NCBI GenBank assembly: GCA_943355005.1
Contig: CALRDV010000006.1
Location: forward strand, 1-62,455
From: Patescibacteria group bacterium
Lineage (GTDB): Bacteria; Patescibacteriota; Microgenomatia; UBA1400; MFAQ01
DNA length: 62,455 bases
Direction of reading: 5' to 3'
Shown here: positions 24 to 22,117 of the stretch, in pieces
Layout: each line of letters begins with the position of its first letter
Numbering within the stretch: the first letter of the stretch is position 1
The notes under the pieces: model-generated
What the model was told of the DNA's origin: nothing
Seen by the model: only the letters and a program-made list of their open reading frames with translations
The model's database searches: none
Program-made: the position numbers and the translations under genes

Positions 24-1085
24 ATGAATTCCAATAAAAAATCACCATTTGTCTCCATAATCATCGTCGATTACAAAAAGAATAATCCCTATCTGGTGGA
101 ATGTCTGGATGCCATCCAAAAACAAACATACAAAAATTTTGAAACAATCTTAGTTTGCGATTATCCAGTCACTTTGTCATCCTCGAGAATGCGGGGATCC
201 ATCCCCTTAATTCGTCAAAAATCCTTTGGTTACTACGTCGGGCCTGCCGAAAAAAGAGACAATGGTGCCAAAATGGCGAAAGGGGAGATCTTAGCTTTTA
301 TCGATGACGACGCATTCCCATCAACTGACTGGCTCAAAAATATAATTCCACACTTCAAAGATCCAATGATTGCAGGTGTCGGAGGACCGGGAGTTACTCC
401 TCCAGATATATCCTGGCAGGAACAGGCTTCCGGCTGGGCTTCTGCTTCTCCTGTTGGTGCCGGCAACTATACTTATCGCTTCCTTCCCGGCAAAAGACGC
501 TTTGTTGATGATTATCCTTCCATGAATCTTGCAGTCCGTAAATCTGATTTTGAAAAAGTAGGAGGCTACGATTCAAATTTTTGGCCGGGAGAAGACACAA
601 AGCTGTGTATGGACTTAACGCATAAATTAGGAAAAAAAATAGTCTACGAACCAAAAGCCATTGTCTACCATCACCGTCGACCCATTTGGCTAGGCCATTT
701 AAAGCAGAATGGTAGTTTTGGACTTCACCGAGGTTTTTTTGCCAAGATACTTCCCAAGACTTCTTTCAAACCCATCTACTTTGCCCCCTCACTTTTGGTC
801 TTAGGGCTTTTTTACCTTCTATTTTTGGCCCGCCTAAATCAGCCACCACTAAATTATTTTCATACTTACGGTTGGCTGGCCCTAAAAATCTATTTCATAC
901 TTCTATTCCTCAATTCCCTCTGGGTCTATTCCGTCATTGCGAGGAGTGAAACGACGTGGCAATCCAGGCTATCAAAAGGCCTTCTCCAATCCCTCCTCTC
1001 CATCCCGGTCATCTTCACCACTCATCTTTGGTATGGCATCTGTTTCATCCAAGGATTCCTATTTACTGATAAACTAGTACGTTAA
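24..1085 (+). CDS. GT2-family glycosyltransferase with C-terminal membrane segment
   Basis: GT-A N-terminus FVSIIIVDYKKNN..LDAIQKQTY, DxD-like FIDDDAFP, WPGEDTKL; hydrophobic C-terminal third; in-frame GTCATTGCGAG repeat copy at 933-968. Confidence 0.8.
   Translation: MNSNKKSPFVSIIIVDYKKNNPYLVECLDAIQKQTYKNFETILVCDYPVTLSSSRMRGSIPLIRQKSFGYYVGPAEKRDNGAKMAKGEILAFIDDDAFPSTDWLKNIIPHFKDPMIAGVGGPGVTPPDISWQEQASGWASASPVGAGNYTYRFLPGKRRFVDDYPSMNLAVRKSDFEKVGGYDSNFWPGEDTKLCMDLTHKLGKKIVYEPKAIVYHHRRPIWLGHLKQNGSFGLHRGFFAKILPKTSFKPIYFAPSLLVLGLFYLLFLARLNQPPLNYFHTYGWLALKIYFILLFLNSLWVYSVIARSETTWQSRLSKGLLQSLLSIPVIFTTHLWYGICFIQGFLFTDKLVR
933..968 (+). repeat. GTCATTGCGAG..TGGCAATCCAGG hairpin repeat, inside a CDS
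   Basis: gtcattgcgaggagtgaaacgacgtggcaatccagg; same head and tail as the copies at 1354 and 59380. Confidence 0.8.
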
Positions 1086-1351
1086 TGACTAAAGTAACCA
1101 CCACAGATAGTACTAGTGAAGCTACTCGCAGCGATGGCTTCAAAATTACAGTTGACCTAGACCAGTGCATCTCCGCCGGTCCTTGCTCAATCGCCGCGCC
1201 TCTTACATTTATGCTTCGTGATTCAGACGGTAAAGCCATTATTTCGGATCCGGACGGTGACGACATAGAAAAAGTGATGGAAGCTGCGCGCTGCTGCCCC
1301 GTTCTTGCTATCATGATAAAAGACCAAAACGGAAAGAAACTCTTTCCCTAA
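1085..1351 (+). CDS. Small single-cluster ferredoxin (3Fe-4S/4Fe-4S type)
   Basis: 88 aa; DQCISAGPCSIAAPLTF matches the CxxxGxCxxxAPxxF pattern of small actinobacterial-type ferredoxins, plus distal CCPVLAI (CP..AI); ATGA-type overlap with upstream stop. Confidence 0.65.
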   Translation: MTKVTTTDSTSEATRSDGFKITVDLDQCISAGPCSIAAPLTFMLRDSDGKAIISDPDGDDIEKVMEAARCCPVLAIMIKDQNGKKLFP

Positions 1352-1353
1352 TT

Positions 1354-1392
1354 GTCATTGCGAATCTCGTACTCGAGCTGTGGCAATCCAGG
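1354..1392 (+). repeat. GTCATTGCGA..TGGCAATCCAGG hairpin repeat
   Basis: gtcattgcgaatctcgtactcgagctgtggcaatccagg, 2 nt after the stop of the ferredoxin gene; first 27 nt identical to 34969-34995. Confidence 0.85.
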
Positions 1393-1410
1393 AATAATTA
1401 AAATACATAA

Positions 1411-2985
1411 ATGCCCAAAAAACTCAAATCCAAAATATCTCCCTTACGTCTAGTAGTCGGCTACCCCCCCATGCCTTCGGATCTAGGTGTAATGCTTCTC
1501 TCTCAAAACCGCCAATTCCAGTACTTCAACGCCAAGACCTACATCTATCCAATGGTCCCGGCTTATGCAGCCAGTAATGCCAAAGATAAAGGCTATTCGG
1601 TCAAATGGATGGATGGTATCGCAGAAGAACAAACATTTGAAGATTGGCTTAGCGAGCTGAAGAAATTCAAACCTGATGTCTTGATGGTGGAAACGAAATC
1701 CCCAATTGTTAAGAAGCACTGGGCTCTCACAAAAATTCTTAAAAAAGAATTACCAAATTTACTTTTAGTCTGGGTAGGGGATCATGTTACTTTTATTCCA
1801 GAAGAAATGATGGACAATAGTAAAGTTGACTATTTAATTACTGGTGGTGACTACGATTTTGGTATCGTAAATCTCCTTGATCATTTATCTAAAGGAACAG
1901 AGCTCGAAGGTGGTATTTGGTGGAGAGAAGGAGACAAAAGAATCAAGCAAAAACCCGCAGAAACATTTAAGCGCAAAGGAAAAGTTGCTTTCGCCAATTC
2001 CGGCAAACCCAGTATTGCCCACGATTTAAACGAACTTCCATTTGTAGATCGAGAACTTACTAGATGGGAGCTCTACTCTGTTTATAACGGCAACTACAAA
2101 TACACCCCTGCTACCTATATGTACTCTGGTAGAGACTGTTGGTGGAATCGCTGCACCTTCTGTGTCTGGGACCACACAATCAACCCTATTGGCTCGTACA
2201 GAAGATTTACGGCTCAGCGTCTATTCGACGAAGTTAAACATGTCGTAGACAATTACCACGTCAAAGAAATTTTTGATGACGCTGGTACTTTTATGATTGG
2301 CAAACCTCTCGTCGATTTTTGTAATCTGATGATAAATTCCGGATACAACAAAAAAGTTGTCTTTGGCTGCAATATGCGTCTAAATGCCCTTAAGCAAGAG
2401 CATTATGATCTCATGGGTAAGGCCAACTTCCGTTTCATTCTTTACGGTATGGAATCGGCCAATCAATACACTCTCGATCATCTGGATAAAGGTCTAAAAG
2501 TAGAACAAATCGAAGAAGGAGTCCGAATGGCCAAAAAGGGTGGACTGGATCCTCACCTTACCATCATGATGGGCTACCCTTGGGAAACTTACGAAGATGC
2601 GAGAAATACTGTGGAGCTAGCCAAGAAATGTTTTGACAAAGGTTATGTCGACACACTCCAAGCTACTGTCGTCATCCCTTACCCGGGTACACCTCTCTGG
2701 AAAGAATGCAAAAAAGAAGGCTGGCTATTATCGGAAGATTATGACGACTACGACATGAGAAAACCGGTGATGAAATCCACTCTTTCCGAGAAACAAGTTC
2801 TGGAACTAACACAAGATCTCTACAAGGCTTTCTTAAGTCCCAAGTTCATGCTGAGAAAGGTTAGAGAAATCAGGAGTCTTGACGATATTAAATTCCTTTT
2901 TATGGCCGGCTGGCGCTTCCTTGGCCACATGATGGACTTCTCTCCCAAACAACTAGGCCAACACGGCGATGTTCAGAGCAGTTAA
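1411..2985 (+). CDS. B12-binding-domain radical SAM enzyme (class B rSAM)
   Basis: N-terminal Rossmann-like B12-binding region (PDVLMVETKSP..LLLVWVGDHVTF..DYLITGGDYD), Cys cluster DCWWNRCTFC (Cys243/248/251), FILYGMESAN and MMGYPWET TIM-barrel-like segments. Confidence 0.8.
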   Translation: MPKKLKSKISPLRLVVGYPPMPSDLGVMLLSQNRQFQYFNAKTYIYPMVPAYAASNAKDKGYSVKWMDGIAEEQTFEDWLSELKKFKPDVLMVETKSPIVKKHWALTKILKKELPNLLLVWVGDHVTFIPEEMMDNSKVDYLITGGDYDFGIVNLLDHLSKGTELEGGIWWREGDKRIKQKPAETFKRKGKVAFANSGKPSIAHDLNELPFVDRELTRWELYSVYNGNYKYTPATYMYSGRDCWWNRCTFCVWDHTINPIGSYRRFTAQRLFDEVKHVVDNYHVKEIFDDAGTFMIGKPLVDFCNLMINSGYNKKVVFGCNMRLNALKQEHYDLMGKANFRFILYGMESANQYTLDHLDKGLKVEQIEEGVRMAKKGGLDPHLTIMMGYPWETYEDARNTVELAKKCFDKGYVDTLQATVVIPYPGTPLWKECKKEGWLLSEDYDDYDMRKPVMKSTLSEKQVLELTQDLYKAFLSPKFMLRKVREIRSLDDIKFLFMAGWRFLGHMMDFSPKQLGQHGDVQSS

Positions 2986-2991
2986 ACGTCT

Positions 2992-3017
2992 GTCATTCCG
3001 GGCTCCGACCCGGAATC
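2992..3017 (+). repeat. GTCATTCCGGG..CCCGGAATC hairpin repeat
   Basis: gtcattccgggctccgacccggaatc; 8-bp perfect stem ATTCCGGG/CCCGGAAT; 6 nt after the rSAM stop. Confidence 0.85.
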
Positions 3018-3025
3018 CAGTTCTC

Positions 3026-3062
3026 GTCATTGCGAGTTTCAGTACTCCGAACCGTGGCAATC
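3026..3062 (+). repeat. GTCATTGCGAG..TGGCAATC hairpin repeat
   Basis: gtcattgcgagtttcagtactccgaaccgtggcaatc, in tandem with the 2992 copy. Confidence 0.85.
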
Positions 3063-3091
3063 TCACTCCATCTACCTGATAAACTATAGAA

Positions 3092-4108
3092 ATGCCGCCG
3101 TCCATATCTGTCGTTATTCCAACTTTGAATTCTGGCTCGGTCTTGGAAAAATGTCTCAAATCTATTTCAATTCAAAAGTATCCCAAATCAAAAGTGGAAA
3201 TTTTGATAGGAGACGGAGGGTCCACGGATGATACTCTTTCGATAGCCAAAAAATACGGTGTCAAGATAATCTCAAACAAACTAAAAACAGGTGAGTCGGG
3301 GAAAGCGGTAGCTGTCAAGGAAGCCAAAGGGGATTTAATTGCCCTTATCGACTCGGATAATATCCTACCAAATAATCATTGGTTTGCGGACATGGTAAAG
3401 CCATTTGAGGATCAAGAAATAATTCTTTCCGAGCCCATCAAATATAGTTATCGAAAATCTGACCCATATCTAACTAGATACTTTTCATTACTTGGTATGA
3501 ACGATCCAATCTGCCTATTCATCGGTAATTACGACCGCCATTCATACATCACCGAGCGCTGGACAGATTTAAAATTTTTGGAAGTGAAAAAAGGTGGTTA
3601 CATAAAAGTTACATTAGACCACAAACCCATTCCTACTATTGGGGCCAACGGTACGATTTTCAGAAAAGATATTCTGCAAAAGGCAGTAAAGAACTCAGAT
3701 TATCTTTTTGATATCGATATTTTACTCAAGATCATCAGGTCAGACAAAAAAGTAAAAATCGCCAAAGTCTATACGGGGATCGTTCACACCTTTGTCGAAA
3801 ATGATGCAAGAAAATTTTTCCGAAAACAACTTAGAAGGATGAACGACATGTCATTTCACAGAGCCAAGAAAAACAGGGAGGTTGATTGGGAAAGTTCATT
3901 CATGCCGGGAATCCTCAAGTTTGTCTTATCCTGTGCACTAATATTGCCAATCTTATTTCAGACTTTAGTAGGATATTTCCGAAAACCGGATTCAGCCTGG
4001 CTCTTCCACCCCATTGCTTGCTACTCGACATTGATAATATACATTTACGGCTGGATAAGAGGTAAAATCTTACCGGCAGAGTCTAATCGGGTTAACTGGA
4101 AGCAATGA
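3092..4108 (+). CDS. GT2-family glycosyltransferase
   Basis: ISVVIPTLNSGSVLEKCLKSISIQKYP..VEILIGDGGSTDDT, LIDSDN DxD motif, C-terminal TM helices. Confidence 0.8.
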   Translation: MPPSISVVIPTLNSGSVLEKCLKSISIQKYPKSKVEILIGDGGSTDDTLSIAKKYGVKIISNKLKTGESGKAVAVKEAKGDLIALIDSDNILPNNHWFADMVKPFEDQEIILSEPIKYSYRKSDPYLTRYFSLLGMNDPICLFIGNYDRHSYITERWTDLKFLEVKKGGYIKVTLDHKPIPTIGANGTIFRKDILQKAVKNSDYLFDIDILLKIIRSDKKVKIAKVYTGIVHTFVENDARKFFRKQLRRMNDMSFHRAKKNREVDWESSFMPGILKFVLSCALILPILFQTLVGYFRKPDSAWLFHPIACYSTLIIYIYGWIRGKILPAESNRVNWKQ

Positions 4109-5034
4109 CAAAAACAAAAAAAGATGGTTATTGGTTAAATAAAAAAGTGGCGGTTACCGGGGCAGGTGGTTTTTTGGGTTCTCATTTTGTAACTGAACTT
4201 GAATCTCTCGGGGCAGAAGTTAGCTCATTTTCTAGAGAGAAAGTGGATCTATTGAGTTCCGAAAAAACGACTATTGCACTAAGTAATATTGATGTAATCG
4301 TCAATTGTGCGGCAATCGATGGAAATGCAGAATTCAAGAAAAATCACGCCGCTGAAATTCTTGATGCTAATATGAGGATTTCTTCCAACGTTTTAAATGC
4401 TGCCAAAAATAATCAAATAAAGGAGGTTGTATTAATCAGCTCTTCTGAAATTTACTCAGGTTTCGCTCCAAATCCAGTTAAAGAGACGGATGATTATCGT
4501 ACATTTGGTGGTCACACAGAAAGTGGGTACATTTTATCCAAAAGATATAGTGAAATATTGGCCACTCTTTATCAAGAGCAGTATGGATTTAATGTTTATC
4601 TGCCTAGACCATCAAATATATTTGGACCCGGAGACCATTTTGGTGAACAGTCAACCAGGGTAATACCCAGTTTTATCAGTAAAATCGTAACAAAGATGCC
4701 AATAGAAATTTGGGGGGATGGTTCGCAGGTTAAACAATTTATTTATGTAAAAAATGTTGTCGATGCAGTTCTGTCTACGGTTGAAAATAAGAATAATGGT
4801 GTCATCAACATATCCACTAACGAATACATATCAATTCTGGAATTAGCTAAAAAAATATCTTCATTATTAGATATTGAAGCAGATATCAGATTAGATAATA
4901 CAAAGTCCATTGGGTCGAAAAGCCGTATTCTGGACACCACAAAAATGTATCAATTGACCCATACAAATCCTATGTCACTGGAAGAAGGTCTTGTTGAGAC
5001 GATAAAATGGTATAAGAATAAATTTTACAAATAA
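4105..5034 (+). CDS. NAD(P)-dependent sugar epimerase/reductase (extended SDR, GDP-fucose-synthase-like layout)
   Basis: VAVTGAGGFLGSH Rossmann motif, YILSK (YxxxK), IWGDGSQVKQFIYV; ATGA overlap with upstream gene. Confidence 0.65.
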   Translation: MTKTKKDGYWLNKKVAVTGAGGFLGSHFVTELESLGAEVSSFSREKVDLLSSEKTTIALSNIDVIVNCAAIDGNAEFKKNHAAEILDANMRISSNVLNAAKNNQIKEVVLISSSEIYSGFAPNPVKETDDYRTFGGHTESGYILSKRYSEILATLYQEQYGFNVYLPRPSNIFGPGDHFGEQSTRVIPSFISKIVTKMPIEIWGDGSQVKQFIYVKNVVDAVLSTVENKNNGVINISTNEYISILELAKKISSLLDIEADIRLDNTKSIGSKSRILDTTKMYQLTHTNPMSLEEGLVETIKWYKNKFYK

Positions 5035-7206
5035 ATGGACTTAAATCTAAAACTGATTCGGTTGATGCTTTATCCGTTTTTGATTTTCTCGCTTGCAATT
5101 TATGTATGTTTATATCTCTTGACACCGCTGAAGTTCGCCTATCAGGCATCAATAGTCTCAGGCTTTATTTGTACATTAATCGTATACATTCTTGAAAAGC
5201 CTAATTGGGCAAACATTTTTGGTAAATTTTTTAGTTGGAAAACCGTTCTTCTATGCATCCCAATTGTCTTTTTAATTCTAGTGTATGGTTTTGTGCTCTC
5301 TCCGTTAGTCAAAATTAGAATTTCGGATGGTCATGAGTTTCTGGGCTTAACGGCTCTTGGTGACTATTACAAACATCTATATATCCTTTCGGCAGTAAAA
5401 ACTGAAGGACTCCCGCCTCATCATCCATTTTTCCCGGCTGCCAATCTCTCGTACTATTATGGCTATTATTTAATTCCAAGTGCAGTTTCTTCGGTTTTTA
5501 ATCTAGATCTATCCCGCGTCTTTCTCATTTATCTGTTATTTACGACGTTCATCATTTTGTTTGTTGTCGTTCAGGTCTCAGTCTCTCTGTTTAAGACTTG
5601 GTATCAAAGATTACTAACCCTTTTCCTTTTTATCCTGGGGACAGGTCTTGATATTGTCCCCACCTTAATTCAAGCAAAGAAAGGTATTCTTACAGCCAAC
5701 CATATTGAATTTTGGTCACAGGTACTAAGTCTTAATAACTATATTGTTAACAATCTTTATACCGTACTGTTTTGGGTCCCGCAGCACAGCTTCACTAGTC
5801 TATTTGTTTTGGTTACAGGGATGATGTTAATAAAGGATAAAAAAATACCCATACTATGGCTGGTGCTTACAGTCTGGTTCTGTATCATTTCCAGTACATT
5901 TGTTTCTGTGGCTCTTTTAATCTGGCTGATTTTAGCCATCTTGTTTTTGCCTCATTTCAGGTTAGGTTTGTTTGTTTCTGGTGTGCTATCAATATTATTA
6001 CTTCTTCCGTACATAATAGAGCTCGGCAGTAGAGGTTCAATACTTTCTTTTGGGTTCTACATGACACCTTTTGTGTATCTATCTTTTTTACCCAAATGGA
6101 TTAATTATTTTTTAACTTTCTTTACTGAATACGGTATTATTCTTGTCTCTATACCAATATTCTTTATTATTCAAAGCAAAATTAATAAAAAAATTGCATG
6201 GCTTGTTACGCTCGGAGTTTTATTGCCTATTATTCTTGGCTTATTTGTAAAATCTTCCGGGTTTAATGATTATTCTATGAGGTCTGTATTGCCTTCTCAA
6301 ATGGCTTTGCCATTTGTAACAGCATATATTATTGGGAGCGTGGAATCGGGGTGGTGGAAAAAAACTCTTTTTGTTCTATTAGTTTTAAATTTAATTCCTG
6401 CCATGATTGGGCTTTTTTACGAAATCCATTTCAGATTGATAGATAAGGGGGAAATAGATTCACAAACCTCTGAGCTTTTAGTTGCACTTCGTAAAAATCC
6501 AGTACAAAATCTGGCTGTATTATCAAATGAGGACTGGGTGTTTCTGATACCCTCTTATGGCTATCAATCAGTTACTTCTCCGCGCTTGTTTGATTCGGAA
6601 AGCTATCTATCGAATTCAGAAATTAAATATCAGAAAGAATACGCCGACTTAGTAAATAATATTTTTATTAATGAAGATCTTGGTGGTAATTTCATAGATG
6701 TATTGAACGGTAGGGAGCAAAGACTGCAAAAAATGGGCTTGTTCTTTAATTCCAATAGAGCCTTCAACTTTGTTGTTTCCAGGTTTAGAGGCGTAAAAAC
6801 CGACATTAATCCCCTTGAGAGAATGTTGAACTACTCGGGGGCCGGTGTAAGCAGTCTTACAGACACCTATCTTTTGTACTCAGGGTCTTCCCTTGATGAT
6901 GCCTTTAGGCATCTAAAAATTGAATTGAGGCCAGAATTACTAAAGAAAGAATTTATTGATTCAAACAATAAAATATATTTACAGAGCGGTTTTCAGTTCG
7001 TTATTGGCTGTTCTAAAGATAAAGCTTCGAATTTAATTCTCGAACTAAATGATTCTGTCTCACTCTTTAATAAAAAACTTGAGTCAGGCAAGCATCTCTG
7101 TGCAGGAGCAATTTATTATCAGCCCAAAGATGGAAAGGTATATGTTTCCCAAAAAAGCGAAGTAGGGGAAATCTATGTAGCTCCGATAATTTTGCGTAAG
7201 ATTTAG
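5035..7206 (+). CDS. Large polytopic membrane protein with C-terminal soluble domain (function unknown; candidate glycan polymerase/GT-C-like)
   Basis: 723 aa; at least 12 hydrophobic segments over about 480 aa, then a ~240-aa hydrophilic tail; starts immediately after the upstream stop. Confidence 0.55.
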   Translation: MDLNLKLIRLMLYPFLIFSLAIYVCLYLLTPLKFAYQASIVSGFICTLIVYILEKPNWANIFGKFFSWKTVLLCIPIVFLILVYGFVLSPLVKIRISDGHEFLGLTALGDYYKHLYILSAVKTEGLPPHHPFFPAANLSYYYGYYLIPSAVSSVFNLDLSRVFLIYLLFTTFIILFVVVQVSVSLFKTWYQRLLTLFLFILGTGLDIVPTLIQAKKGILTANHIEFWSQVLSLNNYIVNNLYTVLFWVPQHSFTSLFVLVTGMMLIKDKKIPILWLVLTVWFCIISSTFVSVALLIWLILAILFLPHFRLGLFVSGVLSILLLLPYIIELGSRGSILSFGFYMTPFVYLSFLPKWINYFLTFFTEYGIILVSIPIFFIIQSKINKKIAWLVTLGVLLPIILGLFVKSSGFNDYSMRSVLPSQMALPFVTAYIIGSVESGWWKKTLFVLLVLNLIPAMIGLFYEIHFRLIDKGEIDSQTSELLVALRKNPVQNLAVLSNEDWVFLIPSYGYQSVTSPRLFDSESYLSNSEIKYQKEYADLVNNIFINEDLGGNFIDVLNGREQRLQKMGLFFNSNRAFNFVVSRFRGVKTDINPLERMLNYSGAGVSSLTDTYLLYSGSSLDDAFRHLKIELRPELLKKEFIDSNNKIYLQSGFQFVIGCSKDKASNLILELNDSVSLFNKKLESGKHLCAGAIYYQPKDGKVYVSQKSEVGEIYVAPIILRKI

Positions 7207-7215
7207 TCAAAATTC

Positions 7216-7938
7216 TCACTTTGAGCACACAAAGACGTTAAATGCGGTAAATAAGTTGATTACCGGAATTTTATTTAATACCGCATTAATTTTCAAAAAC
7301 AAGGGGGAATAGTTTGTAAATGATGTGGGAAGCCAGCTCCAGCGTACATGTTGATCAGCTTTGAAACCATTCTTATCGAATATATATTTTAGGGAAAACT
7401 CGTTACTTCTAAGATACTGAAATGTTAGGTGACTTTTTATTTGACCATTCATCGTTAAGAATGGTATAAAAAGCAAATTTAAGGGATTCATCTCAAAAAC
7501 AATTAATTTCCCATTTTTTTTGAGAGACAATCTTATGTGCTCTAGAATTGCATCCAGGTCATCAGTGTGGTGAATTAAGTTAACTGCTAATACTACATCA
7601 AAACAATTTGTATAACCTTGATTTTTGAAATCACCAACTATTCCCTCAAAATTATTAAGCTTGTAGTATTTTGCCGTCTTATTTGCTATTCCAATTGAAT
7701 TCTTAGAGATATCGATTCCTGTAACCTTATTTGCATATTTGGCTAGTTTTAATCCCAATTTCCCGGTACCACAGCCCAAATCTAATACAGTTTTACCTTT
7801 GAGGGGTCCAATAATATTTTTAAAAAAACTTAGTTCGTTAATTTCAGCGACAGGAACATTTTCAAGGTCAAGTCTATTTATTCCCTTAGTATAACTATCC
7901 CAATATTTTGCCTGTTTTTTAGAAAATTTAGTCTTCAC
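7216..7938 (-). CDS. Class I SAM-dependent methyltransferase
   Basis: Motif I VLDLGCGTGKLGLKLA, motif II FDVVLAVNLIHH, post-II KKNGKLIVFE. Confidence 0.8.
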   Translation of the reverse strand: MKTKFSKKQAKYWDSYTKGINRLDLENVPVAEINELSFFKNIIGPLKGKTVLDLGCGTGKLGLKLAKYANKVTGIDISKNSIGIANKTAKYYKLNNFEGIVGDFKNQGYTNCFDVVLAVNLIHHTDDLDAILEHIRLSLKKNGKLIVFEMNPLNLLFIPFLTMNGQIKSHLTFQYLRSNEFSLKYIFDKNGFKADQHVRWSWLPTSFTNYSPLFLKINAVLNKIPVINLFTAFNVFVCSK

Positions 7939-9094
7939 CCGCTAATAATAACATTTTTAATCTCTCGTTTACTTGTTTATCGATATCAAATTGTTTAGCA
8001 ATATTCAGACAAGTTCTACTTTGGCTTGCTAAATTATCCTCTGACAAGAAAAGTCTTAAACTGTCAAAATCAGTAAGATTATTTTTGGGTGCTAATCTGT
8101 ATACAACTCCACTATTCAGTATAGGTTTTGACAGAGAAGGTTCTTTTGAAACAATAAATGGTAGACCACACAATAGAAAGTCCCAAATTTTCATGGGTTC
8201 GATAAATTCGGTAGAGCCGAATTTCTCATCATACAGGGCAATTCCTACATCACATTTTGCGGCGACTTTCTGAAATTCCAGCCTTCCATTCAATCTAAGT
8301 ATGTCCGTATTCCTAAGCATATATTTTTTTGAATATAATTCAAATTTTTCGTGATCTTTGGTAGGGACAATTACGTATTTGATATCTTTTCTGATCTCTT
8401 TTTGTATGGTCGAAAGAAATCCGAATAAAATATCAAATTGTCTGTCTGTCAATAAGCTCCCGGTCCATATCATTTTGTCGCCCTTGCGCTCTCGGTGACC
8501 AGAGCTGTAAATAGTTGGATTAAAAACCACTGAATTGGGTACATAAAATGATTCAATTCCATAAGTTTTTCTTTTGTAATCTCGCAAAGCTTCGCATATG
8601 ACCCACGTCTGATCGCTATATTTAGACGACCATTTATCTGCAGTTTCGTAGAGGAGCTGCAAATATTTGTTTTCAAACCTATTCTTGTTGAAATCTACAC
8701 AATGAAAAACTAATGTGTATCCCAATAAGGGTCTAAAAAGTAATAGTGGTAGACAGGAGAGTGGGTCGACTCCAATTACTAGTTTTTTCTTATGTTTGTT
8801 TTTTAGCGACCATTGAAGAATAAATTGTGTCGTGATAAGGATATCTATAACAAACTTTACGGGCAATGAATTGCCCAAAAAAGAAGGTAGAGTTTTTTTT
8901 TGTGGTTTCTTCCATTTGCCATAAATTATTTCGTTCTTATAGCCCTCTAGCGGTAGTCCTAATATATCTACATTTTTTATGTTCTTAATTAGTGCTGAAG
9001 ACAAAGAGCTATAAGGTCCCTCTATTGGTGCAAGAGGTTCTGTTTTGCGATAAGCAATATGGGATACAACAAGTACATTTTCAAATTTTTTCAT
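7928..9094 (-). CDS. GT-B fold glycosyltransferase (GT1/GT4-like)
   Basis: C-terminal FGSTEFIEPMKIWDFLLCGLPFIVS resembles the GT-B E-x7-E/donor-binding region. Start moved to the internal ATG at 9094 (MKKFENVLVV) because the longer ORF overlaps the divergent gene. Confidence 0.5.
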   Translation of the reverse strand: MKKFENVLVVSHIAYRKTEPLAPIEGPYSSLSSALIKNIKNVDILGLPLEGYKNEIIYGKWKKPQKKTLPSFLGNSLPVKFVIDILITTQFILQWSLKNKHKKKLVIGVDPLSCLPLLLFRPLLGYTLVFHCVDFNKNRFENKYLQLLYETADKWSSKYSDQTWVICEALRDYKRKTYGIESFYVPNSVVFNPTIYSSGHRERKGDKMIWTGSLLTDRQFDILFGFLSTIQKEIRKDIKYVIVPTKDHEKFELYSKKYMLRNTDILRLNGRLEFQKVAAKCDVGIALYDEKFGSTEFIEPMKIWDFLLCGLPFIVSKEPSLSKPILNSGVVYRLAPKNNLTDFDSLRLFLSEDNLASQSRTCLNIAKQFDIDKQVNERLKMLLLAGED

Positions 9095-9152
9095 AATCTC
9101 ATCTATTCTACCCCGAATCGTGGTATATTCTGATAATAACTTGCTTGCGCTT

Positions 9153-10193
9153 ATGGAAGAAATAAACAATTTTGAATTAAACAAAACTCCCGTTTCATTA
9201 GTCACGGGTGGTGCCGGATTTATAGGGTCGCATGTTGCAGACCATCTAATATCCATGGGTCACATGGTTGTTGTATTAGACGACCTGAGTGGAGGCTTTA
9301 TGAGAAATGTTAATACTAAAGCCATATTTGTTAAAGGGTCTGTCACAAATGAGAAAATTCTAGATGATTTGTTCCGTAATTATAATTTTGATTATGTATT
9401 TCACTTGGCCGCATATGCAGCAGAGGGATTGAGTCATTTTATTCGACAATTTAATTATAAAAACAATCTCATTGGTTCAATAAATCTAATAAACAGATCT
9501 GTAAAATTTGGTGTCAAACAGTTTGTGTTTACCTCTAGTATTGCTGTTTATGGTAAGAACCAAACACCAATGCTGGAAACGACTACCCCTTCTCCTGAAG
9601 ACCCATATGGTATATCTAAGTATGCTATTGAGCTAGATTTGAAGGCTGCTCATGAAATGTTTGGATTAAACTATACTATATTTAGGCCACACAATGTATA
9701 CGGAGAGCGACAAAATCATGGAGATCCATACAGAAACGTTTTAGGTATTTTTATTAACAATATTATGAAGGGTAAACCAATGACCATTTTTGGTGACGGT
9801 TCCCAGACCAGAGCTTTTAGTTATATCGACGATGTAGCTCCTTATATAGCAAGGTCGATTGAAACCCCAGACGCACTTAACCAGATAATTAATATCGGAG
9901 CCGATAAACCCTACTCCATAAATGAGTTAACCTCAGAAATCGCTAAGGCCATGAACGCAGAAGTAAATATTGAAAAGCTTCCCGCACGCAATGAAGTCGT
10001 AAATGCATATTCTGATCATTCAAAAGCAAGGACGATATTTAAAATTATATCAACAACTAATTTGGAGGATGGTATTAAAAAAATGGTAAAGTGGTCAAAA
10101 GAATTAGGACCAATGACTTCCAAAAAATTTAAAAATATAGAAATAAAGATCAATATGCCTCCTTCGTGGAGCGCGTTAATTTCAAAAAAATGA
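9153..10193 (+). CDS. NAD-dependent nucleotide-sugar epimerase/dehydratase (extended SDR)
   Basis: VTGGAGFIGSH, YGISKYAIE (YxxxK), FGDGSQTRAFSYIDD. ATG at 9153 preferred over GTG at 9120 (extended -10-like TGGTATATT at 9121-9129). Confidence 0.75.
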   Translation: MEEINNFELNKTPVSLVTGGAGFIGSHVADHLISMGHMVVVLDDLSGGFMRNVNTKAIFVKGSVTNEKILDDLFRNYNFDYVFHLAAYAAEGLSHFIRQFNYKNNLIGSINLINRSVKFGVKQFVFTSSIAVYGKNQTPMLETTTPSPEDPYGISKYAIELDLKAAHEMFGLNYTIFRPHNVYGERQNHGDPYRNVLGIFINNIMKGKPMTIFGDGSQTRAFSYIDDVAPYIARSIETPDALNQIINIGADKPYSINELTSEIAKAMNAEVNIEKLPARNEVVNAYSDHSKARTIFKIISTTNLEDGIKKMVKWSKELGPMTSKKFKNIEIKINMPPSWSALISKK

Positions 10194-12366: not shown

Positions 12367-13188
12367 ATGATGAATTCAGCCAATAAACAAGTCAAAACAA
12401 TAAAATATAACAAAAAATATTTTGAGAGTCTTTTTAAGTCCCACGACTATTCAAAAAAAGTTAAGTTTGCGTCATTTGGCCATATATATAGAGATCTAGC
12501 GAACTTATGTAAATTATCCCCTGGAGATAAAGTAGTCGATTTTGGTTGTGGTAACGGAGAACTTAGTTTTTGTTTGTATCAAAAATATGGTGCAGAGGTT
12601 ACAGGCATAGATTATTCAGGTGACGCAATTCAAATAGCAAAAGATAACCTGGTAAAACTATGTAAAATAGACAAAAATCCAAATATTAGATTTATAAATG
12701 TCAACAACGATGGTCTCCCCAAACTTAAGAACATTAGCTATGTATATTTTTGTGATGTACTGGAGCATATGTACGACCACGAAATTTCTCAAGTATTAAA
12801 AAGGGTTAAGCTTTGGAATAATAAAAAAATTAGAATTGTGGTACACACAGACAACAATACTTTTCTCAGGTTTGTTCGGCCATTTATAGACGGACTATCT
12901 ATTATCACCGGAACAAGTAGTGTCCATCAGGTACAAAGCAGAAATTTGTGGGAATCGGAACGACATGTAAATTTGACAAATCCAAGTAAATTTAGAAAAA
13001 ATATTTCTAAATATGGCTTCAATGAAGTGAAATTATTCTACCCAGAGGTCAATATGGATAAGATAGAAAGACAGTTGGGGGGACTCTCTCGATTACCTCT
13101 ATTAAAAAAAATTGTGTTTTTCGCTTTAAAAATGCTCAAGCCATTAAGTCCTTCTTTCTACGGAGTATATGAATATGAGTCAAGGTAG
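12367..13188 (+). CDS. Class I SAM-dependent methyltransferase
   Basis: Motif I VVDFGCGNGELSF, TGIDYS, FCDVLEHM. Confidence 0.75.
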   Translation: MMNSANKQVKTIKYNKKYFESLFKSHDYSKKVKFASFGHIYRDLANLCKLSPGDKVVDFGCGNGELSFCLYQKYGAEVTGIDYSGDAIQIAKDNLVKLCKIDKNPNIRFINVNNDGLPKLKNISYVYFCDVLEHMYDHEISQVLKRVKLWNNKKIRIVVHTDNNTFLRFVRPFIDGLSIITGTSSVHQVQSRNLWESERHVNLTNPSKFRKNISKYGFNEVKLFYPEVNMDKIERQLGGLSRLPLLKKIVFFALKMLKPLSPSFYGVYEYESR

Positions 13189-15640
13189 GTTCGTAAAGTT
13201 TACGCGCCTTATACCAATTGTCGTCATCCTAATTTTATCTTTTATCCCGGTTGTTTTAACTTGGGGAAGAGTAGTTGTTGGTGGAGATACAACAATTCCT
13301 TTTGATAGCGCAGCCATCTCTAAATTTCTCTATCAATGGATTGGAGTCCAAAATGGTTCATATTTTTCTGTTAATTTTTATCCGCTTTACTTTTTTTATA
13401 AAATTGCTGAAATCCTCGGTCTCAGTTTTTATCAAATATCCTCTCTACTCTTGTTTGTACTCAGCTTGGTCGCTGGGTTAGGTGTCTACAGATTGACGAG
13501 ATTGTATTTTAAAAGTGGAAATTATTTTGATTTCATATTTCCAATAGCTTTTTATATGATGTCTCCTGCGTTACTCAACAGCTGGCACTATTTATATATC
13601 TATTCATTTTCACCTTGGTTCATTTATTTGCTTGTCAGTTTTGTTAAAAAGAAGGAAATCAATACTGTAGGCATTATTTTTCTTAATATCATAATATTTT
13701 GCGCCTCGATGGACCTACCAAATCCAAAATATATATTTTTTCTTCTTTTGAGTGCAATTACTATTGCTATTATTAGCTACATCACAAAATTAGTTGATAT
13801 TAAATTCCTTGTCAAAGTAATCTGGGCAATTGGTATTTCATTATTATTATCTGCTTATCTAATACTTCCTTTGGCAAATTTTGCTTTAAGATATACCCCC
13901 TCAAACTATGGAGTTACTGTAAATCCAGGGAATCAGGGAACCGATAGTATGTTAGATTCTGGATCAGCCACAATAAACAAGATGTTTGCAGTCCACCACA
14001 GTGGAGTCAACATTAACAAAGACGAAAGAGATGCGTATTTAAAAAATCCCTTGATAACCCTTACTGGTTATGTTTACCTGTTTGTGATTATTGCGGATAT
14101 TTTCCGTGCTAAAAAAAACAAGGGTAACCGATTACTTACCTCGCACAAACTTATATTTCTCGCTTTAATTGTTTTGTTTCTGATTTTATCAACCGGACCG
14201 AATCCTCCATTTGGTTATTTTTACATGCTCATTGTAACTAAGGTAAAACCGCTTGCGTTTTTAAGAACGACTGCCGGAGCTGTTTTTTTCTTAGGGTTGT
14301 TTTATTCAGTTTATATTTTTATATTTTTACAGACTTTGAAAAAATATAAGAACTTAATTCAGGCTATTTTAATAATCGCGGTACTTGTCACCGGTTATCC
14401 ACTAATAAATGGAGATTTTTTTGAGAACAATACAAATATTAATCAGTTCGCAAGTAAGGATACTAAGGGCTTTAAGTTAGCGTCTGATTATTTCGGCGTA
14501 TCTCCACTTATAAATAATCAAAAGGTTGACTCAAAAACATATTATCCGGGGATGGATTCATCTTACATATATACAAACTGGGGGTATTTTGGTCCAATGT
14601 TTTACACTTTTGCGTATAACACCTCTCCAATATCAGATAATATGATTATATATAATCGTGACTATCACAATATTGGATTAACTTTCTTGGATTTAACTGC
14701 TGTTCAAAGTACAACAACCCAACGATATTTCAAGAGACAGCCTATATACGACGGAAAAATAGTTAAACTCTTTCAAACCTCACAGTCAAACTTTCTACCC
14801 CATTTTTATACTCCTAAAATAGTAAGTTCAAATTACCTGGGTCCTAAACAGAATGAAGAATCTAGCCCAAGTCTGCCGTTTAATGTAAGGTCAGCAGTTT
14901 ACCCTAATAAAACAAATCTAAGAACTGTTGAGATACAAGATCTTCCTCACCTTGAATTTAAAAAAATTAATCCTACAAAATATAGAATTGTTGTTCATGA
15001 TGCATTCACAAGTTTCCCCTTAATATTTTCCGAATCTTTTAATTCCGGATGGAATATATTCGTTACCGATATGGAGAAACTTGGTAGACCAAAAGAAGAG
15101 GGGTTGCAGACGATCTTGCAGAAAGTTCCATATAAAATTTTAGTCGGCAACGAAACAAATCAAGCCACCAAAGAGGAACTTATTAGTTTTGTAAAAAACG
15201 GCTTAGTAACTGATTTGGGGGATGGGAGAATAAAAAAAAACAATTATTATAAGTGGGAAAATGCAAAAAAAATCTTGGACTATACAGAAGATTTCAGTGT
15301 TGATTTCATTTCCAAAAACTTTCAGGATACCATACAAAACGATAATTTAAGAAATGGTCATTTCTATGAAACTTGGTTCTCAAAACCAATACAAGCTGAT
15401 CATCAAGTCGTAAATGGCTACGCCAATTCATGGATCATTGACCCATCCAGCATATGTAGTTTCAATAAATCTTGTATCAAAAATGAAGATGGTTCCTTTG
15501 ACTTTGAAATCACTGTTGAATTTTGGCCACAAAAACTCTTTTACATTGGAGTCGGAATTTCAACGATCACGGTCTCAACTATTCTTATCTTACTTGCTTT
15601 CGGCTTTCTAAGAAAAAGAAAAATATCCTTTGTTGATTAA
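13169..15640 (+). CDS. Very large polytopic membrane protein, AftD/DUF3367-like GT-C candidate
   Basis: 823 aa; first loop GGDTTIPFDSAAISKFLYQW resembles the DT..d....f...W loop of DUF3367/arabinofuranosyltransferase-like proteins (recalled, not searched); many TM helices, ~300-aa extracytoplasmic region, C-terminal TM anchor. Confidence 0.45.
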   Translation: MNMSQGRFVKFTRLIPIVVILILSFIPVVLTWGRVVVGGDTTIPFDSAAISKFLYQWIGVQNGSYFSVNFYPLYFFYKIAEILGLSFYQISSLLLFVLSLVAGLGVYRLTRLYFKSGNYFDFIFPIAFYMMSPALLNSWHYLYIYSFSPWFIYLLVSFVKKKEINTVGIIFLNIIIFCASMDLPNPKYIFFLLLSAITIAIISYITKLVDIKFLVKVIWAIGISLLLSAYLILPLANFALRYTPSNYGVTVNPGNQGTDSMLDSGSATINKMFAVHHSGVNINKDERDAYLKNPLITLTGYVYLFVIIADIFRAKKNKGNRLLTSHKLIFLALIVLFLILSTGPNPPFGYFYMLIVTKVKPLAFLRTTAGAVFFLGLFYSVYIFIFLQTLKKYKNLIQAILIIAVLVTGYPLINGDFFENNTNINQFASKDTKGFKLASDYFGVSPLINNQKVDSKTYYPGMDSSYIYTNWGYFGPMFYTFAYNTSPISDNMIIYNRDYHNIGLTFLDLTAVQSTTTQRYFKRQPIYDGKIVKLFQTSQSNFLPHFYTPKIVSSNYLGPKQNEESSPSLPFNVRSAVYPNKTNLRTVEIQDLPHLEFKKINPTKYRIVVHDAFTSFPLIFSESFNSGWNIFVTDMEKLGRPKEEGLQTILQKVPYKILVGNETNQATKEELISFVKNGLVTDLGDGRIKKNNYYKWENAKKILDYTEDFSVDFISKNFQDTIQNDNLRNGHFYETWFSKPIQADHQVVNGYANSWIIDPSSICSFNKSCIKNEDGSFDFEITVEFWPQKLFYIGVGISTITVSTILILLAFGFLRKRKISFVD

Positions 15641-15646
15641 TTAATT

Positions 15647-17239
15647 ATGACAAAAAAACATCTTAGCTATATTTCACTATCGATTTTTCTTTTGATATTA
15701 GGAGTCTACAACCTTTTTAATCTTTTAAATAATCAAGAATTCGGGATACTAAACTTGGATGTTCGAGGAAACACAGAGCAACTTATCGCTACAAAATCCG
15801 GAGAGTTACTTAAAGGTGATAAGGTCTGGGGTGCTTTTCATTCTGACTATTCAAATTTAGGCATATTGTCGATGCGGTTTTATAACGGTGATAGAGATAG
15901 TAAAGATACTTTGATTTTCAGATTTAAAGAAGAAGGTAATGATAAATGGCTTTATGAGGCTAAGTATGAAACGGATCAATTTGTTCCTCATCAATTATTT
16001 CCATTTGGTTTTCCCATAATTTATAACTCTGCGGATAGGAATTATGTATTTGAATTGGAATCGGCCAGAGGAGCCACGGGCAGTGGAATATACATTGACA
16101 ATTCACAACCTGTTTTTGTTGCAAAATCAACCTATGCCAGGTCAGATTTGATGAACAATAACAATCTGCTAATTTATTTTATTAAAAATAAAATTTTAAA
16201 CATCTTTGGAGATCAATACATTTTGGCAAATATTTTTGTATGTTTCTTGCCTCTTATTATCTTTTTGGCCTTTATCGCGACTAGTGGTTTGATTTACCAG
16301 TATTTATCTATTTTTGCTTTTACTCTTATCTTGCTGGACATATTTCTATTAAATAATCACAACGATTATTATTATGTGTATTTCCTGTTTTTATGGTCCT
16401 TAATTTCACAGAGATATCGATTTGAAACCAAGATATCCACACTTATATCCTTCATTCTTTACATTGTCACTAGTATCATTTTTGTATTAGGAAGCAGAGA
16501 TGTATCTGAAAAAACAGGGGTGTGGGCGCTTGTTTTTTTACTTTTCTCGACCATACAAACCATCTTTGAACTTAACAACTCTAAGATAAGATCAATGACA
16601 TTGAGGTATTTTGTAAAAAACTTGTTTCGTTTTGAACCAATATCCGATCAAAAGGTAATTAAAATTCCGGAAAAATTTCTAAAAGTTTTATATGCAATAT
16701 TTTTAGTTTATGTGTTCTATTCAACATCATTCCATATCTATCAAGCTATAGAAAAATACAAGCAATTTTATCCAACTTCTTATCTTGGCAAGTTTAGTTT
16801 TTCTTTTTTGCTGCCAGAATTTATACTGGTGTTGACACTGTCTTTATTATATTTATATAAAAGAGTAGTAATAGTTAAATCAAAAATTCTTTTGGTTGTA
16901 ATATTTACGGTTTTCTATTTTTCAACCAGGCAGATAATTTACCAGTCGCTCTCTTTTGAAAGCTTACCCACCATTTTTTCCGTCTCACCTGAGCACACTA
17001 ATGAGGCGTGGGTTGATGTGGTGGTAAAAGGTAAAAACTTTAGAAATATACCATTTATCGGTAAGGTATATATTAGCGATATCGAACAGGGTGAATATCT
17101 AGTTTTATGGTCTGATGAAAAGATTGTTTTTAGAACCAGCCCGACATTGACAACGACGGGAGAAATTAAAGTTGTTCCCTTGGACCGGAAACCTTCAAAC
17201 AGTGTACCTTTTATGTATAATTTTAAATATATAAAATGA
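15647..17239 (+). CDS. Polytopic membrane protein with C-terminal IPT/TIG-like beta-sandwich domain
   Basis: C-terminus IFSVSPEHTNEAWVDVVVKGKNFRN..VYISD..LVLWSDEKIVFRTSP..TGEIKVVP matches the IPT/TIG pattern; central multi-TM block. Confidence 0.55.
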   Translation: MTKKHLSYISLSIFLLILGVYNLFNLLNNQEFGILNLDVRGNTEQLIATKSGELLKGDKVWGAFHSDYSNLGILSMRFYNGDRDSKDTLIFRFKEEGNDKWLYEAKYETDQFVPHQLFPFGFPIIYNSADRNYVFELESARGATGSGIYIDNSQPVFVAKSTYARSDLMNNNNLLIYFIKNKILNIFGDQYILANIFVCFLPLIIFLAFIATSGLIYQYLSIFAFTLILLDIFLLNNHNDYYYVYFLFLWSLISQRYRFETKISTLISFILYIVTSIIFVLGSRDVSEKTGVWALVFLLFSTIQTIFELNNSKIRSMTLRYFVKNLFRFEPISDQKVIKIPEKFLKVLYAIFLVYVFYSTSFHIYQAIEKYKQFYPTSYLGKFSFSFLLPEFILVLTLSLLYLYKRVVIVKSKILLVVIFTVFYFSTRQIIYQSLSFESLPTIFSVSPEHTNEAWVDVVVKGKNFRNIPFIGKVYISDIEQGEYLVLWSDEKIVFRTSPTLTTTGEIKVVPLDRKPSNSVPFMYNFKYIK

Positions 17240-18636
17240 TTAAGAAAATCAACCAAATTGGTCCATTAATCCTTTTTTTGTGTTTATTTTTTCTTCCTTC
17301 CCTGTTTACTTTCTTCTCCGGTGACGACTGGTTTCACCTTCGAATCACCCAAATAAGTTCAATAAGTGAGTTTTTAAACTTCTTTTCTTTTTCACACACG
17401 GCGCAATCTGCCGCCTTCTGGAGACCCCTTCCCACCCAAGTCTTTTTCTTCGTATTCCAAAAACTTTTCGAGTTGACTGTCTGGCCATATCACTTATTCG
17501 TTCTAATCTGCTTTGGATATTCTCTTTATTTAGTCAAGAAGTTCAGTTCTCTATATCTAAAATCCGAAATTCAGCAACTGTTATCAGTACTAATCTATGG
17601 TCTTTCGGTTTCCAACTTCACCAGACTCTATTTCCTATCCTCATTCCAAGAGATCTCTTTGGTTATTTTTTCACTTCTTTGTCTGCTAAATTTTCCAAAA
17701 TCTAAATACAAGGCTACTTTTTTCTTTGTCTTGGCTCTGATGTCGAAAGAGACCGCTGTGGTAATACCTCTGCTTATACTTCTGTTTAATTTTAGAGAGA
17801 TCAAAAAGACAGTTGTCTCCATTTTGCCTTTGGCCGGAATACTTCTCGCTTATCTTTATTTTCGCTTTGTCGTTTTTGGTTCGCCGGTAGGGGATAGCTA
17901 CACTTGGAACTTCTCTCCCGCGAAGGCTGCCAATACTCTTCTGTGGTACGTCCTCTGGAGTTTTGGTGCCCCCGAACTTTTAGTTGATTATGTCGGTAGT
18001 GGGTTTAGATTGATGCCCAAGTTTTTCACAGATTATGCCGTTTGGTGGAAAGTGATCATTCTCTTACTCATGGGTACTATTGGGACAACCGGTTTGTTAT
18101 TCATCCAAAAAATTAAGAAAGTAGACTTTATGTTTTTGAAGTTAGACTTGTTCTTCTTGATTACTATTTTTCCCGTTCTATTTCTTCCTTCGCACAAGTT
18201 TGCGCTGGAGTTGGGTCTACCACTGGTTGGCTTCTCGATGGCTATTGCCTGGCTCATTCCCAAGAAACTCAACATTTTGAGTTTTAGTTTTTTTGCTTTT
18301 TTTGTATTTTTGAATTTGTCTATGAACTACTTAACTTACATAAGACATTACTCTGTCAGTAGGGGAGAAATCTCGCAAAAAGTTTATCAACATATCTCAA
18401 AGAATTACGCGGTCTACCCAAGTGGTAAATATTTCGAATTTATTAATGATTCTGGAGACTACGGTGCGGAGTGGGGGCAATCCAAGCAAATATCCCAATC
18501 TTTATCGGGTTCGGACTTTTTCAAGGTTTACTACAAGAACCCAGACATAAAGGTATATTATCAAGATATACAGGAAGCTATTCCTGCCGGTCAAACCCCA
18601 ATATTTTTAAGCACTAAACAATTTTTATCCCGGTGA
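17236..18636 (+). CDS. GT-C fold membrane glycosyltransferase (PMT_2/ArnT-like)
   Basis: First-loop acidic motif FFSGDDWFHLR right after TM1, at least 10 TM helices, soluble C-terminal tail; ATGA overlap upstream. Confidence 0.55.
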   Translation: MIKKINQIGPLILFLCLFFLPSLFTFFSGDDWFHLRITQISSISEFLNFFSFSHTAQSAAFWRPLPTQVFFFVFQKLFELTVWPYHLFVLICFGYSLYLVKKFSSLYLKSEIQQLLSVLIYGLSVSNFTRLYFLSSFQEISLVIFSLLCLLNFPKSKYKATFFFVLALMSKETAVVIPLLILLFNFREIKKTVVSILPLAGILLAYLYFRFVVFGSPVGDSYTWNFSPAKAANTLLWYVLWSFGAPELLVDYVGSGFRLMPKFFTDYAVWWKVIILLLMGTIGTTGLLFIQKIKKVDFMFLKLDLFFLITIFPVLFLPSHKFALELGLPLVGFSMAIAWLIPKKLNILSFSFFAFFVFLNLSMNYLTYIRHYSVSRGEISQKVYQHISKNYAVYPSGKYFEFINDSGDYGAEWGQSKQISQSLSGSDFFKVYYKNPDIKVYYQDIQEAIPAGQTPIFLSTKQFLSR

Positions 18637-20297: not shown

Positions 20298-20341
20298 GCA
20301 TAAATGCACGAAAACAGCTAAAAAAGGCAAAATTTAGGCAC

Positions 20342-20377
20342 GAACTGTTAATACTTCACTATGAACTGTTAACACTT
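20342..20377 (+). promoter_or_regulatory. Direct repeat GAACTGTTAA(T/C)ACTT x2, candidate operator upstream of the wHTH-ComF-like gene
   Basis: gaactgttaatactt (20342-20356) and gaactgttaacactt (20363-20377), 21-bp register, just upstream of TATAAT at 20389-20394. Confidence 0.4.
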
Positions 20378-20400
20378 AACAAATAAGCTATAATATACCT

Positions 20401-22084: not shown

Positions 22085-22117
22085 GTATAGATAAGAATTA
22101 TATAATGAGCTAATCAA

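Follow-up and report, generated by a model that had tools for sequence, protein, structure and literature searches.

A conserved glycosyltransferase-ferredoxin-radical SAM unit in Patescibacteria, candidate for the modification of a lipid-linked sugar

Bacteria of the candidate phyla radiation (CPR, Patescibacteria) are largely uncultured episymbionts whose surface chemistry is almost unknown. A locus in one of them raises the question of what a radical S-adenosylmethionine (SAM) enzyme of the cobalamin type, with a small ferredoxin gene next to it, does among the genes for family 2 glycosyltransferases (GT2). The locus lies at the left end of the window, by which we mean the whole stretch of 62,455 nucleotides (nt) that was analysed (contig CALRDV010000006.1); all coordinates refer to this window and to the + strand unless stated otherwise. 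A sequence-only reading had proposed a ferredoxin of 88 amino acids (aa), a radical SAM protein of 524 aa and GT2 genes on both sides of the pair. Both open reading frames (ORFs) lie exactly where it had placed them, and Pfam recognized GT2 genes on either side (Table 1). The ferredoxin and radical SAM genes are real, since conserved homologs exist for both (62 for the ferredoxin and thousands for the radical SAM protein). On balance, we think that the radical SAM protein is probably a cobalamin-type enzyme acting on a sugar that is made by a GT2 and is likely lipid-linked. The ferredoxin would be its electron partner, and C-methylation is the chemistry that we favour.

The domain content of the radical SAM protein was assessed with Pfam and with a structural model. 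With 59.4 bits, the Radical_SAM domain (PF04055) passed its cut-off of 29.5; the B12-binding domain came out marginally under its own. An AlphaFold2 model (50 sequences) reached a mean predicted local distance difference test score (pLDDT) of 84 and a predicted template modelling score (pTM) of 0.87. When it was compared with the Protein Data Bank (PDB) by Foldseek, the matches to radical SAM structures were, in this order, MgmA (9ccb), AprD4 (6fd2), TsrM, OxsB, CysS and TokK, all with a probability of 1.0 and E-values of 1e-20 to 1e-13. A partial TIM-barrel core was present, and the modelled N-terminal domain aligned with those of MgmA, TsrM, OxsB and TokK. Class B architecture, which is that of SFLD subgroup 5, is thus supported despite the Pfam score of the B12-binding domain, because the Foldseek matches are two-domain enzymes of the class B type. 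The earlier proposal of a B12-binding domain joined to a radical SAM core therefore holds. A search of the PDB by sequence returned two weak partial matches only, one of them AprD4.

A corrinoid would most likely occupy the N-terminal Rossmann domain, adjacent to the cluster. In TokK, the tryptophan of a C-X-W motif stacks between the cluster and cobalamin (PMC9204698); in the window protein, W253 occupies this position and is invariant in an alignment of 50 sequences. G123 and G145-G146-D147 are invariant as well, and H125 is invariant or nearly so, at the presumed positions of the Gly and Gly-Glu motifs for the cobalamin tail. These positions were assigned from predicted secondary structure and a review (PMC9204698), with Asp in place of Glu. 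Few regions of the protein are better conserved than the N-terminal domain, and in homologs the B12-binding domain scored 34-40 bits, above the Pfam cut-off. No cobalamin uptake or salvage genes were found in Pfam scans of the window ORFs up to ~44.5 kb.

The cysteines that should bind the cluster are Cys243, Cys248 and Cys251, with codons at 2137, 2152 and 2161, and the loop reads C-WWNR-C-TF-C. The sequence-only reading had given these residues and codons correctly, had called the CX4CX2C spacing non-canonical and had asked whether it holds within a clade. It is invariant among close relatives: exactly one CX4CX2C motif occurs in each of the 120 closest homologs (120/120), and C243, W244, W245, R247, C248, T249, F250, C251 and W253 are all invariant in the 50-sequence alignment. 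The nearest of the more distant representatives have X4, X7 or X10-20 between the first two cysteines; in those farther away, which are HpnJ-like, the spacer is the canonical X3. Because near relatives vary, farther ones carry X3 and the closest 120 are fixed, the spacing is, by these alignments, a clade character. It is not unusual for the class, given spacers from X3 to ~X20 among relatives. The structure of OxsB also has CX4CX2C (PMC9204698), as do GenD1, a gentamicin sugar C-methylase, and Sis14 (PMC4340712), and RadicalSAM.org recognizes many variants of the cysteine spacer in the superfamily (PMC9477430).

Two further observations concern this loop. Four full-length radical SAM paralogs (P0136, P0142, P0150 and P0158; 29-38% identical) have all three cluster cysteines replaced and may be catalytically dead partners or regulators. 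In five homologs (P0122-P0126), an intein sits at the cluster-binding motif, the one in P0126 being recognized from its sequence only. The inteins of P0122-P0124 carry a LAGLIDADG homing endonuclease, that of P0125 is a mini-intein, and in P0122, P0125 and P0126 the insertion follows the third cysteine (CTFC/F...). The position of the inteins hints that the gene is important and this site under strong constraint.

Homologs of the radical SAM protein were numerous, with 4680 at E <= 1e-10 among the 8000 candidates scored, and the best 120 were 64-91% identical to it. All matches bearing an organism name belong to the CPR/Patescibacteria. An exhaustive search of representatives clustered at 50% identity gave only 393 at E <= 1e-30, which points to a compact orthogroup amid more distant relatives. 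The gene neighbourhood was followed in 80 loci from a scan of species-representative genomes. The closest of these (86-91% identity) are from Collierbacteria, and the host is a CPR bacterium with a reduced genome, in line with the earlier supposition. Other named loci come from Woesebacteria, Gottesmanbacteria, Roizmanbacteria, Microgenomates and WWE3, with one record each from Moranbacteria, Parcubacteria and Saccharimonadales. About half of the records bear placeholder names, such as 'uncultured Pseudomonadales', which we read as mislabelled metagenome-assembled genomes. Our literature search found no description of the CPR orthogroup or of its GT2-ferredoxin-radical SAM unit. Every component belongs to a known kind, and the cysteine spacing has precedent.

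For the analysis of the neighbourhood, the ORFs of the 80 loci were clustered and representatives were annotated with Pfam and NCBIfam; partners were counted over those 60 loci for which 4.5 kb or more of upstream DNA was available. The genes recur in the order Wzx-like flippase (Polysacc_synt), DPM1-like GT2 of ~264 aa, membrane GT2 of ~340 aa, ferredoxin and radical SAM protein. An ortholog of the membrane GT2 lies upstream of the radical SAM gene on the same strand in 58 of the 60 loci; upstream genes for the DPM1-like GT2 are present in 48 of them and for the flippase in 42. The ferredoxin gene is found upstream on the same strand in 61 of the 80 loci and directly adjoins the radical SAM gene in 47. 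The most constant partner of the radical SAM protein is therefore the upstream membrane GT2, not the ferredoxin. The sequence-only reading had seen a dedicated ferredoxin pairing. The linkage is indeed strong, and so is that to GT2 genes, but it is not universal: one relative at 59% identity has the order GT2-radical SAM-GT2, with overlapping genes and no ferredoxin. An ortholog of the downstream GT2 is a frequent but variable neighbour (within four genes in 17 of the 60 loci), and the genes downstream range from another GT2 to epimerases and GT-C proteins of the PMT/TPR type. In the window, the first two genes of the conserved unit, the flippase and the DPM1-like GT2, lie beyond the left edge, because the window begins 23 nt 5' of the membrane GT2 gene.

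Taken together, the conserved unit looks like a pathway for a lipid-linked sugar. The best models for the DPM1-like GT2 are polyprenyl-phosphate sugar synthases (PpgS, ArnC and AglJ), and those for the membrane GT2 ortholog are MftF and AglG in NCBIfam, both far under their cut-offs. The association with glycan synthesis is broad in the surrounding radical SAM sequence space, because more distant relatives also sit in glycan loci. Those at 38-41% identity (L081 and L084) lie in loci with three or four paralogous B12-domain radical SAM genes plus GT2, GT-C and epimerase genes, and a relative on a Lawsonia plasmid (~26% identity) lies among GT2, GalE, SIS and methyltransferase genes.

Some details of these loci deserve mention. 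In L081 (1252-11556) and L084 (3549-13123), the radical SAM paralogs are interleaved with genes for GT2, GT4, GT-C (PMT, YfhO), methyltransferases and epimerases, and the latter locus also holds a SPASM radical SAM gene. In eight loci, the gene for a protein of ~255-336 aa, which has no Pfam or NCBIfam match, immediately follows the ferredoxin gene and stands ahead of the radical SAM gene (e.g., L019, 4957-5925); two of them, L032 and L053, have further genes before the radical SAM gene. Four of the eight are labelled WWE3 (L019, L032, L034 and L037) and one Saccharimonadales (L053), and three have placeholder names (L018, L025 and L056). The extra protein could be a further component of the pathway.

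The ferredoxin was recognized by Pfam as Fer4_13 (41.5 bits, cut-off 24.5) and Fer4_15 (37.6 bits, cut-off 22.4). Its motif is C28-ISAGP-C34 ... C70-C71-P72, as the sequence-only reading had written it (CISAGPC...CCP). In 64 aligned ferredoxins, however, only three cysteines are invariant (C28, C34 and C71, together with A31 and P72). C70 is replaced by Ser in 55 of the 64, so the CCP doublet is incidental. The ligand pattern is thus CxxAxxC...CP, with three cysteines and Ala in place of the second one. We take this pattern of single-cluster ferredoxins to be the 3Fe-4S type, to which the window protein would then belong. Among solved structures, the closest to it are the single-cluster ferredoxins of D. 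africanus, T. maritima and P. furiosus, together with a ferredoxin domain that forms one chain with a cytochrome P450 51 (6mcw). The N-terminus carries a non-conserved extension of 18 residues. We propose that the ferredoxin is the electron partner of the radical SAM protein, and that electrons would flow from the former to the latter.

These observations can be joined into a mechanism. In the unit of Wzx-like flippase, DPM1/AglJ-like GT2, membrane GT2, three-Cys ferredoxin and class B radical SAM protein, the last would bind a [4Fe-4S] cluster via C243, C248 and C251 and cleave SAM reductively to a 5'-deoxyadenosyl radical. A corrinoid would sit beside the cluster in the N-terminal Rossmann domain. 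As substrate we envisage the sugar that the neighbouring membrane GT2 adds, probably to a glycan that is linked to polyprenyl phosphate or otherwise anchored in the membrane; it would be modified on the cytoplasmic side, ahead of flipping. The ferredoxin would return the cluster to its reduced state and, if the enzyme runs a methylase cycle, would also reduce cob(II)alamin. Reductive SAM cleavage consumes an electron. In the methylase cycle, an extra electron returns Co(II)-cobalamin to methylcobalamin, and most characterized class B enzymes are methylases (PMC9204698). A dedicated ferredoxin would fit a methylase, because the cycle and SAM cleavage would each call for an electron. By analogy with GenK, GenD1 and MoeK5, the favoured chemistry is the C-methylation of an unactivated sugar carbon, for which the support is weak.

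Several points weigh against this proposal. In Pfam, the B12-binding domain of the window protein scored 30.1 bits (E 4.7e-7), slightly under the cut-off of 32.1. AprD4, which is cobalamin-free, has the same fold, so a Rossmann domain is no proof of a corrinoid. The sequence-only reading had assumed methylation as the likely chemistry, but AprD4, the second-best fold match, is a dehydratase, and the two best-scoring family models, HpnJ and BchE, describe non-methylases. In 18 of the 80 loci, the ferredoxin is absent from the fetched DNA (up to 6 kb upstream, in some loci much less). A three-Cys ferredoxin of the 3Fe-4S type usually has a potential less negative than the reduction of a radical SAM cluster needs, and going by its ligand pattern the ferredoxin could serve as electron acceptor instead of donor. 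A profile search of the PDB with the membrane GT2 matched only the generic N-terminal GT-A half, which does not reveal the acceptor. Finally, the radical SAM protein is much better conserved than its GT2 and ferredoxin partners, and a housekeeping role would fit that too. The median identities are 64% for the radical SAM protein, 44% for the DPM1-like GT2, 42% for the ferredoxin, 39% for the membrane GT2 and 25% for the flippase.

The family models are the starting point for a different chemistry. In NCBIfam, the best model was HpnJ (TIGR03471), with 168.5 bits over residues 42-504, i.e., nearly the full length, against a cut-off of 577.6. BchE (TIGR02026) came second with 114.8 bits (cut-off 481), and the methylase models HpnR and PhpK gave 61-65 bits. 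An identification as HpnJ was rejected on this score and on the lack of an hpnI/hpnK context, and one as BchE on score and context. The protein might all the same catalyse a rearrangement like that of HpnJ or Cds, abstracting a hydrogen from the hexose on a lipid carrier and contracting the pyranose to a carbocyclic cyclitol without methyl transfer, which would give a hydrolysis-resistant head group. For HpnJ, PtmC and Cds alike, contraction of a hexose bound to a lipid or carrier has been proposed (PMC13459092, PMC9092360), the window protein is 26% identical to a genuine HpnJ, and the gene order from GT2 to radical SAM parallels hpnI-hpnJ. We nevertheless consider ring contraction rather unlikely. 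Ten representatives of the radical SAM protein were scanned, from the closest clades as well as from more distant, HpnJ-like matches with CX3CX2C; nine of them scored highest on the HpnJ model, but none reached its cut-off (maximum 470 bits). HpnJ is thus the nearest model to a large uncharacterized region, which does not amount to a functional assignment. The conserved unit has no HpnK-type deacetylase, and the membrane GT2 of the window shares no more than the fold with HpnI (E 0.12). An isomerization should also need little reductant, so a dedicated ferredoxin would be less expected.

The cobalamin question leads to the second alternative, a cobalamin-independent enzyme of the AprD4 type. 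Its Rossmann domain would be structural only, and it would carry out a radical dehydration, deoxygenation or oxidation of the sugar, with the ferredoxin giving or taking electrons. AprD4, which has a sugar as substrate, came close to the top of the fold matches (template modelling score 0.66-0.77) and was found by sequence in the PDB as well. The sub-threshold B12-binding score would be explained, a ferredoxin of the 3Fe-4S type would suit a role as acceptor or at mid-potential, and CPR bacteria, as far as we know, generally lack corrinoid synthesis. However, the invariant C-X-W tryptophan and Gly motifs match features of the cobalamin-binding members, the N-terminal domain is highly conserved, and the homologs exceed the B12-binding cut-off. 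We therefore regard this alternative as unlikely.

That the substrate is no glycan, and that the enzyme has a housekeeping task in modifying RNA, protein or scavenged lipid and merely lies beside envelope genes, is very unlikely: its unusually high conservation (64% across CPR lineages vs 39% for the GT2), the inteins that in some lineages target its gene, much as core genes are targeted, and the top fold match MgmA, a protein methylase, would agree with such a role, but the adjacency to a GT2 is kept in nearly all counted loci over distant lineages, in overlapping or coupled genes, and relatives down to ~26% identity recur in glycan loci.

Beyond the proposed modification of a lipid-linked sugar, a wider reading, which we put forward as doubtful, is that this CPR-wide, intein-targeted and constrained module makes a C-branched or carbocyclic (cyclitol-type) lipid-linked sugar, undescribed in bacterial envelope polymers and core to the envelope of Patescibacteria, and that it depends on a corrinoid which these reduced-genome cells cannot make, so that envelope synthesis would hinge on a cofactor obtained from the host or the community. 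The orthogroup is among the better conserved CPR enzymes (~64% identity over Microgenomates lineages and WWE3). If a lipid-linked sugar does receive a radical-derived change, this would be a lineage-wide envelope feature and a concrete case of corrinoid dependence in organisms that are not known to synthesize corrinoids. For enzymology, the locus offers a compact class B radical SAM protein with its own candidate redox partner. Physiological reductants are hard to find, a recurrent obstacle in reconstituting such enzymes, and a candidate partner is useful for this reason.

The features of the locus are collected in Table 1. The epimerase gene belongs to the operon of the downstream GT2, because its start overlaps the GT2 stop. 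A promoter and terminator scan gave no + strand prediction across 24-5034, and the genes from 24 to 5034 read as a single operon on this evidence. Scans of the window for Rfam families and tRNA genes returned no matches. An antisense ORF of 83 aa (1063-1314, - strand) overlaps the ferredoxin gene and was judged spurious.

Table 1. Features of the locus at the left end of the window.
Feature	Position (nt)	Strand	Evidence
Upstream membrane GT2, 353 aa, C-terminal membrane region	24..1085	+	Pfam Glycos_transf_2, 57 bits
Repeat copy within the GT2 ORF, in-frame 12-aa insertion VIARSETTWQSR	933..965	+	
GT2/ferredoxin junction: GT2 stop overlaps ferredoxin start, TAATG	1083-1087	+	
Single-cluster ferredoxin, 88 aa	1085..1351	+	Pfam Fer4_13, Fer4_15 above cut-off
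59-nt spacer, ferredoxin to radical SAM; holds one repeat copy (1354-1388), weak hairpin	1352..1410	+	
Spacer repeat copy GTCATTGCGA...GTGGCAATC	1354-1388	+	
Radical SAM protein, 524 aa, class B architecture	1411..2985	+	Pfam, NCBIfam, AlphaFold2 model, Foldseek
N-terminal Rossmann/B12-type domain of the radical SAM protein	1447-1905 (~residues 13-165)	+	
Radical SAM core	2110-2730 (~residues 234-440)	+	
Cluster-binding loop C243-WWNR-C248-TF-C251-V-W253	2137..2169	+	
Spacer 3' of the radical SAM gene, two more repeat copies (2992-3018, 3026-3062)	2986..3091	+	
Downstream GT2, 338 aa	3092..4108	+	Glycos_transf_2, 76 bits
NAD-dependent sugar epimerase/dehydratase	4105..5034	+	Epimerase, 167 bits

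The spacer between the ferredoxin and radical SAM genes had been said to hold a hairpin repeat. It does contain a repeat copy with a hairpin of an 8-bp stem, but taken alone this fold does not reach significance (z = -1.4). The repeat is dispersed: a pattern search for GTCATT[CG]CG found nine copies, starting at 933, 1354, 2992, 3026, 24841, 34951, 34969, 48606 and 59380, all on the + strand, where most of the genes lie as well. In four of them (933, 1354, 3026 and 59380), GTGGCAATC follows at a distance of 18-28 nt, counted from where the first motif starts. The hairpins are weak, with z from +0.3 to -3.2 (the latter for the copy at 2992-3018), and the repeat was not adopted as a regulatory element for this reason. 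The copy within the membrane GT2 gene adds VIARSETTWQSR between membrane helices of the protein; most orthologs are without this insertion, and one from Woesebacteria (L008) has it.

The wider window was surveyed as well. At least 44 kb (1-44535) form one glycan-biosynthesis super-locus. Besides numerous GT2 and GT4 enzymes, it encodes several epimerases/dehydratases for sugars, a flippase, a polymerase/ligase of the Wzy-like kind, a PMT_2 GT-C protein, an acetyltransferase and a nucleotidyltransferase; a second, Wzx-like flippase would lie beyond the left edge, as placed in the orthologous loci. The otherwise continuous locus is broken at 24964-26785 by a BRO-N domain gene and a Fic/DOC gene, which may be a mobile or toxin-type insertion, and the repeat copy at 24841 lies just upstream of these two genes. 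At E <= 1e-5, Pfam recognized nothing in six consecutive large ORFs at 13169-23881 (823, 530, 466, 554, 332 and 587 aa), nor in the ORFs at 5035-7206 (723 aa) and 7928-9256 (- strand, 442 aa).

Finally, we compared the system with known ones. The ferredoxin shares length class and ligand pattern with the CxxAxxC...CP ferredoxins of D. africanus (FdI), T. maritima and P. furiosus; it differs from them in its N-terminal extension and in its conserved place beside a radical SAM gene. AprD4, a 1,2-diol dehydratase, has the same two-domain fold as the radical SAM protein and acts on a sugar. However, it is 14% identical and serves the biosynthesis of aminoglycosides, and the NCBIfam AprD4 model, whose cut-off is 500 bits, gives the window protein only 34. 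OxsB, TsrM, TokK, CysS and MgmA share the fold over both domains, OxsB also the CX4CX2C spacing and TokK the C-X-W tryptophan; they are 12-17% identical and have other substrates and contexts, and OxsB and TokK carry large extra domains that the window protein lacks.

HpnJ resembles the radical SAM protein in its two-domain architecture, in the C-X-W tryptophan and in the cysteine of the 'CN' motif on strand beta-3. Its gene, too, lies directly 3' of one for a GT2 (HpnI), and the proposed substrate of HpnJ is an amino sugar bound to a lipid. The genuine HpnJ used for the comparison comes from a Mycetohabitans megaplasmid, where it lies in the context hpnI-hpnJ-hpnK. Unlike the window protein, HpnJ has CX3CX2C and no adjoining ferredoxin, whereas the window protein has neither a hopanoid pathway nor HpnK, and its partner GT2 is unlike HpnI. 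GenD1, GenK and MoeK5 belong to antibiotic pathways of actinomycetes, and we know of no conserved ferredoxin partner for them. The likeness that we draw to these three enzymes is by literature description: they are cobalamin-type radical SAM enzymes that act on sugar carbons (PMC9204698), and GenD1 has the same CX4CX2C spacing as the window protein (PMC4340712).

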